Part shown: in pieces, positions 4,848-23,039 of the stretch | How the letters are laid out: each line of letters begins with the position of its first letter | Numbering within the stretch: position 1 is the stretch's first letter | Source of the DNA: Candidatus Moraniibacteriota bacterium | GTDB taxonomy: Bacteria; Patescibacteriota; Minisyncoccia; Moranbacterales; UBA2206 | Direction: 5' to 3' | NCBI GenBank assembly: GCA_037137555.1 | Contig: JBAXKA010000010.1 | Location: 1,051 to 25,050 of the forward strand | DNA length: 24,000 bases | Notes under the pieces: generated by a model | The model's input: only the letters and a program-made list of their open reading frames with translations | Databases searched by the model: none | Told to the model about the DNA's origin: nothing | Program-made: the position numbers and the translations under genes

Positions 4848-5253
4848 TTATCAAAGCAAATCTATAAGCCGGATTCTGTATTATGTAATAATTTATCTAG
4901 CCTTAGCATTACTGCTACGGTCAAGCGGCACTTCCCAATTTACATCAGGACACGGCCTTGCATTTAGATAAGGATTTAGCCGTTTCACCCTTCGACTTCG
5001 CTCAGGGCGAGCCCTGTCTCCATGGCGAACCATGTCTTCAGTGCAAGCCTTGTCTTATGTCGAAGATTTATCCCAAATACTTATTTGGGATACTTTTATT
5101 ATTGCTAATAAAAGCGTCTCTGCTCGCACCTCGCGGATTACTCCGTATGGGTGTTACCCATTACCTTTTCTCGATTGCTCGAGATAAATGTCCGGACTTT
5201 CCTCTCTCGCTCATTAAAATAAACAAGAGTAATTACTCAATTTGCTTTGATAA
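4848..5253 (-). ncRNA. rnpB: RNase P RNA, bacterial type A
   Basis: The reverse strand contains GAGGAAAGUCCGGAC (CR-I), AAGGGUGAAACGGC, CUAGAUAAAU and ACAGAAUCCGGCUUAUAG (CR-V). The P1 pairing is UUAUCAAAGCAAAU (5' end) with AUUUGCUUUGAUAA (3' end). It is a GC-rich island in AT-rich DNA. Ends are approximate, within about 5 nt. Confidence 0.9.
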
Positions 5254-13931: not shown

Positions 13932-14480
13932 ATGAAATTAATTATCGGACTAGGCAATCCTGGTCAAAAATATCAAAATACTCGCCACAATCTTGGCTTT
14001 ATCTTTCTCGAAAAATTACAAGAAAAATGGTTATTTCCTGATTTTAAATTAGCCCAGAAATTCAATGCCGAGTTATCCAGCGGTGAAATAAATAATCAAA
14101 AAATTATGCTTGTCAAACCACAAAGTTTCATGAATTTATCAGGAGAAGTAGTGAATAAAATTTTAACATTCTATAAACTCACGCCCGAAAATTTATTAGT
14201 TTTGCATGATGACAAGGATTTGTTTTGTGGAAAATATAAATTAACCCTTGATTCTTCATCGGCCGGCCATAATGGCGTACAAAATATTATCGATCAGTTG
14301 GACACAAAAAAATTCGCTCGCTTGCGAGTTGGCATTAAAACAGAACCGATTGATCGTGCCATGACGCAACCAGAAGTCAGTGATTTTGTTTTGGGAAAAT
14401 TAACGCCAGAAGAATTAGAAAAAATCGGACAAATAACACCAGAAGTTTTAGCAGAAATTGAAAAAAATATTGTTACCTAG
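13932..14480 (+). CDS. pth: Peptidyl-tRNA hydrolase
   Basis: MKLIIGLGNPGQKYQNTRHNLGF, FMNLSGE, VLHDD and GHNGVQNI motifs. Confidence 0.97.
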   Translation: MKLIIGLGNPGQKYQNTRHNLGFIFLEKLQEKWLFPDFKLAQKFNAELSSGEINNQKIMLVKPQSFMNLSGEVVNKILTFYKLTPENLLVLHDDKDLFCGKYKLTLDSSSAGHNGVQNIIDQLDTKKFARLRVGIKTEPIDRAMTQPEVSDFVLGKLTPEELEKIGQITPEVLAEIEKNIVT

Positions 14481-14500
14481 TTTTTTCAAAAAAATGACCC

Positions 14501-14529
14501 TTGACAATTATTATTATTATAAATACAAT
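14501..14529 (+). promoter_or_regulatory. Near-consensus sigma70-type promoter driving the candidate sRNA
   Basis: TTGACA (14501-14506), 17-nt spacer, TACAAT (14524-14529). Two overlapping TATAAT hexamers follow (14530-14535 and 14535-14540). Confidence 0.5.
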
Positions 14530-14535
14530 TATAAT

Positions 14536-14673
14536 ATAATCTATACTGTCTCGTGGGACTGAAATGCAGGAAATCGGCTCTACTGCGGAGCGTTAGTAGA
14601 CTCCTCTGGAGTATCCAACGCGCTACGATGGGGGTTGCCGTTCCCCCAGTCCCATAAGAGAGTATAGTTTTTT
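14536..14673 (+). ncRNA. Candidate structured small RNA of unknown class (four-helix junction, long closing stem, U-tract)
   Basis: GC-rich island in AT-rich DNA. The closing helix 14541-14560/14648-14667 spans 20 positions: 17 Watson-Crick pairs, 1 G-U pair, 2 mismatches. T6 follows at 14668-14673. Internal hairpins are 14565-14569/14583-14587, 14590-14594/14617-14621 enclosing 14600-14604/14608-14612, and GGGGG/CCCCC at 14630-14634/14643-14647. The strand is chosen from promoter and U-tract. The ends are predictions. Confidence 0.5.
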
Positions 14674-15134
14674 ATTATATATTTTTCATCTCTTATTCGA
14701 AAAGCGGTAGAAACTTGAATTTCTCTTACTGTTAAATCTGCACTAGCTTTATTACTTCCAGCTAGTTCATTGCACTCGCGAACAACTGAAGAAATTTCTA
14801 AAATTTCAACGGCACAAAGATATTCCTCGTTACTAATTCTCTTAGTAAGACAAAAATCGCCCCTTTTTCCTTCCGCATTTCCATATATCCTATCAGGACA
14901 TTTTACTATTTCATGCAAATGATCAATGATAAATAAAAATTCTTCCGCCGGTCTTTTATCAAATAAATGTTTTACGCAACGAGATGTTATATAAACATTT
15001 TTTGCTGAATTTTTAATTTCGATACCTTCGATAACAGCTTCAGTGAGCCGACACAAAAGTACTTTGCGATTAGCAACTATTGCTTTTTGCGGAGTGCCTT
15101 TTATATAATTTTCAAAAAATTTACTCAAATACAT
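14580..15134 (-). CDS. Hypothetical protein, putative BECR-fold (PBECR-like) RNase
   Basis: 184 aa. The pattern NVYITSRCVKHLFDKRPAEEF...IIDHLHEIVKCPDRIY...EYLCAVEILE...IQVSTAFRIRDEKYIIKNYTLLWD matches, from memory, small phage/plasmid PBECR nuclease-fold proteins (xHxxxKHPxD, IxxNPDxI, VAVx, TxF). The last ~28 aa are read through the GC-rich RNA candidate and may not be native. Function is not verified. Confidence 0.45.
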   Translation of the reverse strand: MYLSKFFENYIKGTPQKAIVANRKVLLCRLTEAVIEGIEIKNSAKNVYITSRCVKHLFDKRPAEEFLFIIDHLHEIVKCPDRIYGNAEGKRGDFCLTKRISNEEYLCAVEILEISSVVRECNELAGSNKASADLTVREIQVSTAFRIRDEKYIIKNYTLLWDWGNGNPHRSALDTPEESTNAPQ

Positions 15135-15178
15135 AGCTTTTGTCGAGTGTAATTTTTGTTATTCTACAAGAATAATTT

Positions 15179-15742
15179 CTACTTTAAGATTTTTTCCATC
15201 ATTTCATCTGTCTGTCTTTTTAATTCATCGGCCGTTCCATTATTGTTCAATTTAAATTCAGCATGTCTGCCAATTTCATGAATAGATAATTCTGTTAGCC
15301 GTCCTTCTTCTTCCATAAATTGTTCTAGCGTTGCTTCGTCTTCACCTTCTTTTTCTTTACGCATTTTCGTGCGTTCATAACGCAATCGCAAATCAGCTGT
15401 CACATAGACAAGATAAAAATTTTCTCGATATTTTTTTTGAAATGGCTCGACATCTCCATGCATCCTGATACCATCAGCCATTACTAAGTCCGCATCATTT
15501 TTTTCAATATCCCAAATCAATGAATCAATAATCACCGAAGGGCCATAACCTTCCTTAAGCACTAAGGCTAATTTAATTAAATTATCCCGTGTTACTGGTA
15601 AATGCAAATCTTCCAATGTTCGACGAAGAATTTTTGAAGTGCCAAAATGCACCGCTCCATATTTTTCCAATAAATAATCAGAGACCGTGCCTTTTCCCGC
15701 TCCTTTTTCGCCAATGAGTCCAATGACAATTTTTCTTTTCAT
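15179..15742 (-). CDS. P-loop nucleotide/nucleoside kinase-fold protein (dNMP kinase / CoaE-like)
   Basis: 187 aa. It has a Walker A (IGLIGEKGAGKGTV), then ADGIRMHGDVE (a DxR-type motif as in the adenylate-kinase-like clade) and a Glu/Lys-rich lid region. It starts 18 nt after the rplA stop. Confidence 0.7.
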   Translation of the reverse strand: MKRKIVIGLIGEKGAGKGTVSDYLLEKYGAVHFGTSKILRRTLEDLHLPVTRDNLIKLALVLKEGYGPSVIIDSLIWDIEKNDADLVMADGIRMHGDVEPFQKKYRENFYLVYVTADLRLRYERTKMRKEKEGEDEATLEQFMEEEGRLTELSIHEIGRHAEFKLNNNGTADELKRQTDEMMEKILK

Positions 15743-22590: not shown

Positions 22591-23019
22591 GGGGATGCCT
22601 GGTTTCGACAAGTTGTACGTTTAAAATATGCAAGCCGAGTTTTTATAGTTACTCGTAAAACTACTATTAAAGTTATAAGTGCAAACTTACTAACAAAAGC
22701 AAGAACTGCAATTGCTAACGCTTTTACAGTCAACTTCGCTACCGCTCTTGCCTAATACCGGTCTTTATCGGTTAGGGCATTAGCCATCGAATTTACTTTC
22801 GCCTAAGAGGTAATATTCGGTGTCATATTTTTGGGCTAGCTTTCAATAATCTTTCTGGTTATTTTAAGTAAAAATATAATTCCAGAAATAAATTGAAAAG
22901 GTTTTGTTTGCTTTCCACTTTTCAATTGATCTGCCTTCGGCGGAAATTAAAGCAAAATACGCTTGTAGTATATTTTAGATGAATAATTTTGGACATGGGT
23001 TCAACTCCCATCATCTCCA
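22591..23019 (+). ncRNA. ssrA: tmRNA (SsrA), one-piece
   Basis: The 5' end GGGGAUGCCUGGUUUCGACA pairs with the 3' end CAUCUCC-A, giving a G3-U acceptor pair. The T-arm is AUGGG-UUCAACU-CCCAU. The candidate tag frame 22681-22755 reads ANLLTKARTAIANAFTVNFATALA*. CCA is not encoded. Confidence 0.92.
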
Positions 23020-23039
23020 CAAATGAATTAATAATTTAA

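Follow-up and report, generated by a model that had tools for sequence, protein, structure and literature searches.

The stretch of DNA analysed here (the window, 24,000 nucleotides from a Candidatus Moraniibacteriota bacterium) carries at positions 14501-15134 a two-gene module in which a small predicted RNase, PBECR3-like (BECR-fold), is paired with a convergently encoded, structured small RNA of about 135 nt that has its own promoter. The protein gene is a 184-aa open reading frame (ORF) on the minus strand (14580-15134) whose product is 100% identical to a protein of an NCBI metagenome-assembled genome, and the RNA gene lies on the plus strand across the 3' end of this ORF (Table 1). The RNA is predicted to fold with a closing stem of 21-24 bp and three inner hairpins, and its region stands out as an island of 58% GC in a genome of about 30% GC. 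Its minimum free energy (MFE) is -53.7 kcal/mol (z = -4.3), a value that none of 200 shuffled sequences reached. The promoter upstream matches the sigma-70 consensus at 11 of 12 positions, which places the predicted transcription start near 14536-14537. The covariance model described below found a single copy of the RNA in the window, on the plus strand from 14541 to 14673, with 125.9 bits.

A first-pass annotation, made from the letters of this DNA, had proposed a plus-strand RNA convergent with, and overlapping, the 3' end of a nuclease-like gene, and the fold, the promoter and the covariation now confirm that proposal. It had also described the 5' arm of the RNA as an inverted near-copy of the coding tail; the two arms (14538-14561 and 14647-14670) are 24 nt long, match at 83% by Watson-Crick pairing and lie 85 nt apart. 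Its coordinates and codon assignments proved correct to within 1 nt, with YTLLWD encoded on the minus strand at 14649-14666, and the overlap between RNA and ORF, given there as about 95 nt, amounts to 94-96 nt (94 nt when the RNA-model match is used).

Table 1. Features of the module, of the rest of the window and of related loci. Positions are those of the window unless a locus is named.
Feature	Position	Strand	Remarks
RNA gene promoter	14501-14529	+	-35 TTGACA 14501-14506, 17-nt spacer, -10 TACAAT 14524-14529
Structured small RNA gene	14537-14675	+	about 135 nt, four-way junction (cloverleaf-like)
P1 5' arm of closing stem	14538-14561	+	downstream of the ORF stop; inverted near-copy of codons ...NYTLLWDW
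J1/2 (AAA) and P2 hairpin (UGCAG...CUGCG)	14562-14588	+	loop holds invariant GGCUCUACUGCGG, 14576-14588
P3 arm	14589-14624	+	P3 14589-14593 with 14620-14624, internal loop, P3b hairpin 14600-14612
J3/4 (ACGAU, within near-invariant CUACGAUG) and P4 hairpin (GGGGG-UUGCCGUU-CCCCC)	14625-14647	+
P1 3' arm	14647-14667	+	minus strand encodes the last beta-strand of the protein, Y157-W163
U-run after P1, terminator-like RNA 3' end	14668-14673	+	opposite Lys/Asn codons of the ORF
Folded core of the protein, residues 1-163, PBECR3-like predicted RNase	14646-15134	-
Passenger tail, residues 164-184 and stop	14580-14645	-	translation of the RNA P4-P3-P2 region
pth (peptidyl-tRNA hydrolase)	13932-14480		adjoins the module
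P-loop kinase-like protein (AAA_17/AAA_33)	15179-15742	-	upstream neighbour, 44 nt from the nuclease gene
RNase P RNA	4849-5248	-	109.7 bits, gathering score 100; large insertions
tmRNA	22591-23022	+	tag peptide ANLLTKARTAIANAFTVNFATALA
Mini form of the RNA and tRNA-Gly(UCC)	L200:5329-5475; L204:5770-5916; L203:4212-4761; L085:3899-4448
Bacteroidota module contexts	L028:221-5393; L025:53-6017

About 150 homologous RNA loci were found. An alignment of 50 RNAs, from which the covariance model (R1) was built, yielded the consensus helices P1, P3, the distal hairpin P3b and P4 together with a short invariant P2, with compensatory changes at 20 of the 31 pairs. A DNA pattern taken from the 5' half of the RNA retrieved at least 80 metagenome loci. 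R1 matched every evaluable locus recovered through the protein (55/55) and every metagenome locus (80/80), at 50-142 bits. The structure was assessed on a test set of 78 RNAs, all of which except the window's own came from loci outside model building. Standard pairs filled 96.7% of the pair cells, compared to 41-50% when the partners were slid by one to three columns, and compensatory changes were seen at 26 of the 31 pairs, with a covariation score of 0.644 compared to at most 0.18 in the control; the alignment was fitted to the model and favours the structure somewhat, so that the slid control is the fairer comparison. All 16 pairs of P1 showed compensatory changes (95.1% of cells paired), as did 3 of 5 pairs in P3 and 4 of 4 in P3b, and at pair 127/150 of P4 AU is found in 41 sequences and GC in 33. 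P2 lacks covariation because its 3' strand never varies, and covariation therefore neither supports nor refutes this helix. The most conserved positions of the RNA are unpaired and lie in the junction and the loop (UGAAA, GAAA...GGCUCUACUGCGG and CUACGAUGA); the invariant columns of the P2 loop and J1/2 are unchanged in 50/50 sequences and in 74/74.

The strand of the RNA could also be assigned. G-U pairs (290) far outnumber A-C pairs (20), and matches to the model on the opposite strand reached only 21-37 bits at other loci, which together indicate that the transcribed strand corresponds to the plus strand of the window and is antisense to the ORF. Sigma-70 matches of at least 10/12 were present upstream, in the RNA sense, at 55 of 122 distinct loci, compared to 1 of 122 in the reverse-complement control, and a run of at least five T residues occupied the position of the RNA 3' end in 55 of 137 loci. 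Searches of Rfam 15 (4227 models) with the window RNA and with the phage mini form described below gave chance-level matches only, at both gathering and permissive thresholds (best E = 0.69). A literature search, in which recent preprints were incompletely covered, returned no description of the invariant RNA motif and none of PBECR3 paired with an RNA. As judged by comparative analysis, the structured RNA is a new conserved family with its own predicted transcription signals.

Some parts of the RNA vary between loci. The P3 arm is a simple hairpin in other loci (short-P3 and mini forms). In two loci, L047 (3393-3564) and L070 (5763-5900), additional hairpins separate GAAA from GGCUCUAC within the P2 loop, indicating that this loop tolerates insertions 5' of the invariant block; the L070 RNA also has an enlarged P3. 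Known motifs were considered for the conserved segments and rejected by inspection. A hammerhead or a C/D k-turn for the UGAAA/CGAUGA blocks and a sarcin-ricin/loop-E motif for the P3 internal loop are at odds with the strand order and the opposing nucleotides, and the P3 loop is missing in many members.

The overlap raises the question of whether the DNA is conserved for the RNA or for the protein. In the window the ORF reads on past YTLLWD, residues 163-184 (WGNGNPHRSALDTPEESTNAPQ) reaching 14583 and the stop occupying 14580-14582, where it is the CUA within the invariant block GGCUCUACUGCGG. Across 36 aligned homologues, the best-conserved part of the protein was the C-terminal YTLLWDWGNGNPHRSALDTPKESTNAPQ. 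The first-pass annotation had named a C-terminal tail conserved among homologues that lack the inverted repeat as a point that would count against its reading, and the tail is indeed conserved in that alignment, which by itself would have spoken against that reading. At the DNA level, however, the 56 genomic loci recovered with the protein contain the same block in every locus that reaches that far, it is read in different frames with varying ORF stops, and the RNA is present at every evaluable locus; a conserved protein tail was accordingly rejected, the DNA being conserved whatever the frame or the position of the stop. Most homologues end ...LLW(E/S)WKGGxPSS*, nine codons past YTLLWD, with a TAG stop inside the near-invariant CUACGAUG, and they carry these nine extra codons because the RNA sequence holds no stop in that frame before CUACGAUG. 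The earlier statement that homologues end at YTLLWD thus fails for most of them, as the ORF ends directly behind the last beta-strand in only a few members, which are among the most divergent (...LLWS*, ...KILWKL*). In the latter loci the RNA is still present, with an ORF overlap of 28 and 12 nt and a P1 of about 20 bp.

The window ORF represents a frameshifted form. A 1-nt deletion in the 5' arm of P4 shifts the frame such that CAT CGT AGC is read H-R-S, and translation passes the usual UAG stop within CUACGAUG and ends only at the invariant CUA in GGCUCUACUGCGG; the minus strand of the J3/4-P4 segment encodes G-N-G-N-P-H-R. The deletion is found at two different alignment columns and must have occurred at least twice. 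Other lineages stop within the variable hairpin (DAP*, xGVY*), and in extended tails the segment opposite this hairpin changes freely (TPKEST vs SGLTQPN), tracking the covariation of the RNA. Measured against the RNA-model match at 109 loci, the ORF overlap was 52 nt in 68, 94-100 nt in 30 (window included) and 12-28 nt in 3. The read-through of 22 codons across the RNA core, pointed out at first pass, is therefore real, and it is restricted to lineages with the 1-nt P4 deletion and missing in most homologues; in the window protein, AlphaFold2 gives residues 170-184 a predicted local distance difference test (pLDDT) score below 50, which means that the tail is predicted to be disordered. Since the overlap varies and the ORF ends differ over conserved DNA, the 22-aa tail is explained as frameshift read-through of the RNA gene. 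All invariant blocks are kept in phage copies that have no ORF, indicating that their conservation reflects constraint on the RNA, and the retention of the RNA at overlaps of 12-28 nt indicates that the conserved feature is the convergent pair with its RNA fold and not the coding overlap.

The same observations bear on the possibility that there is no RNA gene at all and that the conservation comes from the protein C-terminus, from a bidirectional terminator hairpin, or from both. High conservation of the tail among close homologues and the resemblance of P1 with its U-run to a terminator would be expected in that case. Conservation of the DNA beyond the stop codon regardless of frame, covariation in four helices of an element with its own promoter, persistence of the core in loci devoid of any ORF and the predicted disorder of the tail all argue to the contrary, and we give this explanation hardly any credence.

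The protein encoded opposite the RNA was next characterized by profile and structure comparison. Members of the family are predicted soluble alpha/beta nuclease-like domains of 140-190 aa, and many of the homologues have a precomputed match to Pfam PBECR3 (PF18812). The AlphaFold2 model of the window protein has a mean pLDDT of 81.7, with the last strand at residues 157-162. Its best structural matches in BFVD were C-terminal domains of phage MuF/polyvalent proteins (E = 8.5e-6 to 9.3e-4, TM about 0.5; top match E = 8.5e-6, TM 0.53), in keeping with the nuclease-like assignment made at first pass. The polar residues K55, H56, D59, K60, R91, T143, R148 and Y152 are invariant in the alignment of 36 homologues and, judged by what is known of BECR enzymes, would suit the site of a metal-independent RNase; a tRNase activity is assumed here from the fold class only. 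We found no family for the protein in NCBIfam, no match to the ToxN/AbiQ family, and no DNA or protein match among the cultured phages of INPHARED. The family is small, as an exhaustive profile search returned only 222 protein clusters at 50% identity among 1.84 billion representatives. A variable-length insert (window 14700-14790, residues ~116-137; pLDDT ~52) is present or missing among close homologues, and many of its versions share a PPAVCGxAEFGxSE-like sequence.

We compared the occurrence of the two genes across loci. In all 55 evaluable protein loci the RNA occupies the other strand at the gene's 3' end, and five further loci, which encode two of the most divergent proteins, also carry it, so that the arrangement is convergent in 60/60 evaluable cases; none of these 60 loci had the protein gene alone. 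The reverse situation, in which the RNA stands alone or beside a mere remnant of the protein gene, was seen in at least 15 loci. At L132 the RNA is a free-standing gene between unrelated genes, with its own promoter and its own terminator, and at L114, L128, L135, L090, L105, L145, L106 and L102 the RNA is intact and the protein gene is a remnant or missing. RNA-only and remnant loci without any protein-only loci form the pattern of decay expected if the RNA is an antidote. One of these loci, L114 (1766-2561), has an RNA copy of 141.6 bits and the usual ORF reduced to a 12-codon remnant; here the RNA lies directly downstream of, and co-directional with, a gene for an NYN-domain (PIN-like RNase) protein, which may reflect a partner swap or a coincidence.

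Further copies of the RNA without a homologous ORF in the flanks read were detected in ten phage or phage-type loci (L072, L201, L111, L205, L070, L200, L203, L204, L085, L202), most of which lie within or next to tRNA genes of the same strand. In two IMG/VR contigs the RNA sits inside large tRNA arrays (20 tRNAs in L072, 102 kb; 26 tRNAs in L201, 99 kb), on the tRNA strand and separated from its neighbours by spacers of a few nucleotides, and it is likewise associated with tRNA genes in L111, L205 and L070. L070, L072 and L063 contain hallmark genes that confirm their phage identity, and the viral contig L065 carries a complete module. Eight of the 12 first viral pattern matches (L062, L064, L066-L069, L071, L073) were discarded as chance, having no model score and a protein-coding look by inspection.

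A shorter version of the RNA, the mini form of 67-71 nt, lies just upstream of tRNA-Gly(UCC) on the same strand in L200, L204, L203 and L085, which suggests a conserved co-transcribed pair. The same mini form occurs in L103 and L109, contigs on which no tRNA was found; the flanks read at these loci likewise do not encode the protein. Its MFE fold is a cloverleaf, composed in order of a P1 of 5 bp, 4 nt, a P2 of 4 bp with a 10-nt loop, 2 nt, a P3 of 5 bp with a tetraloop, 5 nt, and a P4 of 4 bp with an 8-nt loop, followed by 0 nt. Across mini forms the junctions measure 3-4, 1-2 and 5 nt, the P2 loop has an invariant GG, and P4 (4-5 bp) stacks directly on P1. The cellular RNAs have a longer P1, of about 20 bp, and their 3' portion extends over the end of the protein gene. 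A different arrangement is found in phage L063 (9499-10400; identical in L126), which has a portal gene: a tyrosine-integrase ORF abuts a C-terminal nuclease fragment of about 70 aa and a complete RNA. The arrangement resembles an attP that brings in a substitute for the 3' end of the module, in which case the module would serve as an integration site, as tRNA genes do.

These copies could be taken to mean that the RNA has a function of its own, for example as a tRNA-like molecule of phages and cells or as an integration target, and that its adjacency to the protein gene reflects shared mobility. The free-standing copy with promoter and terminator at L132, the copies in phage tRNA arrays, and the integrase abutting the RNA and a truncated protein gene in L063/L126, suggestive of an attachment site, are all compatible with such independence. 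Nevertheless, 60/60 evaluable protein genes keep the position and the strand of the RNA, down to about 35% protein identity and in changing contexts, and this constancy across divergence is hard to explain without a functional link. We regard full independence as quite improbable.

The module occurs mainly in Patescibacteria, also known as the candidate phyla radiation (CPR), and on mobile elements in some Bacteroidota. The CPR contexts differ from one another (uvrA/groEL; yceG; a gene for a major facilitator superfamily transporter with a sensor kinase; pth/kinase). In Bacteroidota, the modules adjoin genes for large serine recombinases, XRE (helix-turn-helix) regulators, a RuvC-like protein and a Roc-COR NTPase/GTPase, and one of them resides on a 3.97 Mb Ferruginibacter contig. 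The Bacteroidota neighbourhood is of the mobile-element or conflict-system type, unlike the housekeeping contexts of CPR, and the distribution of the module is accessory and partly mobile.

The reading that we favour, with a probability of about 0.5 on the present genomic evidence, is that this is a toxin/RNA-antitoxin-like module in which the RNA would be the antidote of the RNase and would act through its conserved tRNA-like fold. In such a module, the RNA would be the cognate neutralizer (RNA antitoxin) of the predicted RNase and would work mainly by its fold, whether through direct contact with the enzyme or by posing as a tRNA-like decoy that cannot be cleaved. The antisense match to the 3' end of the mRNA would follow from the close packing of the genes and would at most add a further layer of control, and phages whose tRNA arrays contain the RNA without the protein gene would thereby disarm the host enzyme. 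The asymmetry by which the RNA occurs alone and the protein never does, together with the mobile contexts and the phage copies, fits toxin-antitoxin and defence logic. A more specific version is tentative: the tRNA-shaped single-copy RNA would bind a BECR-fold tRNase as its antidote, mimicking the substrate while resisting cleavage, its gene would be interleaved with that of the toxin, and phages would counter with a 67-100 nt version placed in tRNA arrays and matured by host tRNA-processing enzymes.

Control by antisense pairing is the obvious alternative, since the first-pass annotation had likened the locus to convergent type I pairs. According to it, the plus-strand RNA would pair with the 3' end of the nuclease mRNA and cause degradation or block, as in txpA/RatA and bsrG/SR4. 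The convergent 3' overlap stands, and in fact is found in every protein locus; the RNA has its own strong promoter, and the potential for a long perfect duplex and a P1 of about 20 bp would suit RNase III. Antisense pairing is not supported as the main mechanism, although it may form an extra layer, given that the convergent layout is universal. The ORF overlap shrinks to 12-28 nt in some lineages, P1 covaries for an intramolecular helix with many G-U pairs that antisense pairing does not need, the invariant positions are unpaired, phage and orphan copies occur without a complementary mRNA, and the protein is a soluble domain rather than a small membrane peptide. Overlaps that range over 12-100 nt, unpaired invariant positions and complementarity-free phage copies favour neutralization by the fold over neutralization by complementarity, and antisense control as the principal mode appears distinctly unlikely. 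The decoy or type III-like antitoxin that the same annotation had offered as its second idea appears to fit the evidence better than pure antisense control.

A further alternative is that the RNA serves the enzyme instead of restraining it, as a scaffold, a guide or a dedicated processing substrate within a ribonucleoprotein, in a non-toxic role such as tRNA-related RNA metabolism, with the overlap keeping the two genes together. The strict co-occurrence of RNA and protein speaks for this, as does the deep conservation of loop nucleotides, a common trait of RNAs that are bound by proteins. The CPR contexts, which are of the housekeeping type, point the same way, as does the placement of phage copies in tRNA arrays, from which tRNA-processing enzymes would release them. 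It has to contend with the retention of the RNA without a nearby protein in cells and phages, the reverse never being seen, with a sporadic distribution linked to mobile elements that speaks against a core function, and with the result that no candidate target complementarity was found. We consider this role unlikely, although somewhat less so than antisense control.

Several observations weigh against the antidote reading itself. The window protein scores 29.7 bits against PF18812, just below the cut-off of 30, and its model had no significant match among solved structures (RelE probability 0.28). The module is absent from both PADLOC and PHROGs, and in CPR it sits among housekeeping genes and not in defence islands. 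The likeness of the RNA to tRNA is topological only. At the RNA-only loci a few kilobases of flank were read, and the protein may be encoded elsewhere in those genomes. The conserved convergent layout and the selected long P1 could be used for antisense or RNase III-type control, and the phage copies of the RNA alone would also fit an RNA with an independent function.

The neighbours of the module in the window are core genes (pth, the P-loop kinase-like gene, rplA, rplK, nusG and secE). The kinase-like gene may be co-transcribed with the nuclease gene, and its product is weakly similar to the kinase-like part of the NCBIfam anti-phage dCTP deaminase model (30.8 bits; cut-off 400). In the distantly related locus L194 (1-1084), pth lies about 2 kb from the module with a PemK/MazF-like gene in between; the nearness of pth in both loci may reflect CPR synteny or a tRNA-related link. 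The RNase P RNA and the tmRNA of the window both show CPR-typical divergent features.

Together, these results add a well-supported structured RNA family to those of bacteria and phages (about 150 loci, strong covariation, no Rfam match), and most of its members come from CPR lineages, where non-coding RNAs are largely uncharted. The locus is also a clean case of an RNA gene that dictates the C-terminus of an overlapping protein, with stop codons that fall in invariant RNA motifs and a 22-aa tail made by frameshift; in gene calling and in protein-family alignments, tails of this kind will be mistaken for conserved protein sequence. Should the RNA prove to be the antidote of a BECR RNase, the module would offer an RNA antitoxin in a single copy whose action depends on a tRNA-like fold, joining the geometry of type I to the logic of type III. 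In that case, counter-defence by antitoxin or substrate mimicry would also explain some of the non-tRNA genes in phage tRNA arrays whose presence has been puzzling.

Compared with known systems, the module shares features with several. Type I pairs with a convergent 3' overlap include txpA/RatA and bsrG/SR4 of Bacillus, and those with nuclease-like toxins include SymE/SymR and RalR/RalA; most type I toxins are small, usually hydrophobic, membrane-active peptides. Like type I systems, the module is a compact two-gene unit found in variable contexts, with a cis-encoded RNA that has its own promoter, runs convergently to the protein gene and is complementary to the mRNA 3' end; in the window this RNA overlaps the predicted toxin gene on the opposite strand by 94 nt. 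Unlike them, its RNA forms a four-way junction with invariant unpaired nucleotides that is conserved across phyla and phages, the overlap varies over 12-100 nt, RNA homologues exist without a complementary gene, and the protein is a predicted BECR-type RNase of 140-190 aa and not a small peptide.

In type III systems (ToxIN, CptIN, TenpIN), the antitoxin is made of short tandem RNA repeats, which precede the toxin gene and are read in the same direction, and phage phiTE reportedly escapes by a pseudo-ToxI. The proposed logic is similar here, in that a structured RNA would neutralize an endoribonuclease directly and phages would carry a copy of the antitoxin RNA to escape. The organization differs: a single RNA copy lies downstream of the protein gene and on the other strand, no tandem repeats were found in 14000-15600 except an unrelated 8-nt unit at 15515, and nothing points to the protein as a processor of the RNA.

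The RNA resembles tRNA in its cloverleaf of four helices, in its tRNA-like junction lengths, in the size of the mini form and in its placement in phage tRNA arrays. It differs in having a tetraloop or a variable extended arm in place of the 7-nt anticodon loop of canonical tRNAs, no T-loop, no consistent CCA end and, in the cellular forms, a closing stem of about 20 bp in contrast to the 7-bp acceptor stem. ARAGORN reported no tRNA at the window element, tRNA detectors miss the mini forms, and the Rfam tRNA model matched neither the window RNA nor the mini form at E up to 10. A tRNA-like domain is also known from the bacterial Y RNA YrlA; no TROVE domain, as would belong to a Ro ribonucleoprotein, was found among the window neighbours (pth and the kinase-like gene) or in the other locus contexts, and no Rfam match pointed to this RNA. 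PBECR3, for its part, is a domain of large virion-associated phage polyvalent/MuF proteins, to which the module protein appears to be related by a hidden Markov model match close to the cut-off and by a predicted structure that resembles their C-terminal domains, whereas the protein described here is a stand-alone cellular one that is always paired with an RNA gene. The module thus belongs to no named family, and we class it as a new form of putative RNA-antitoxin module with a new RNA family at its centre.

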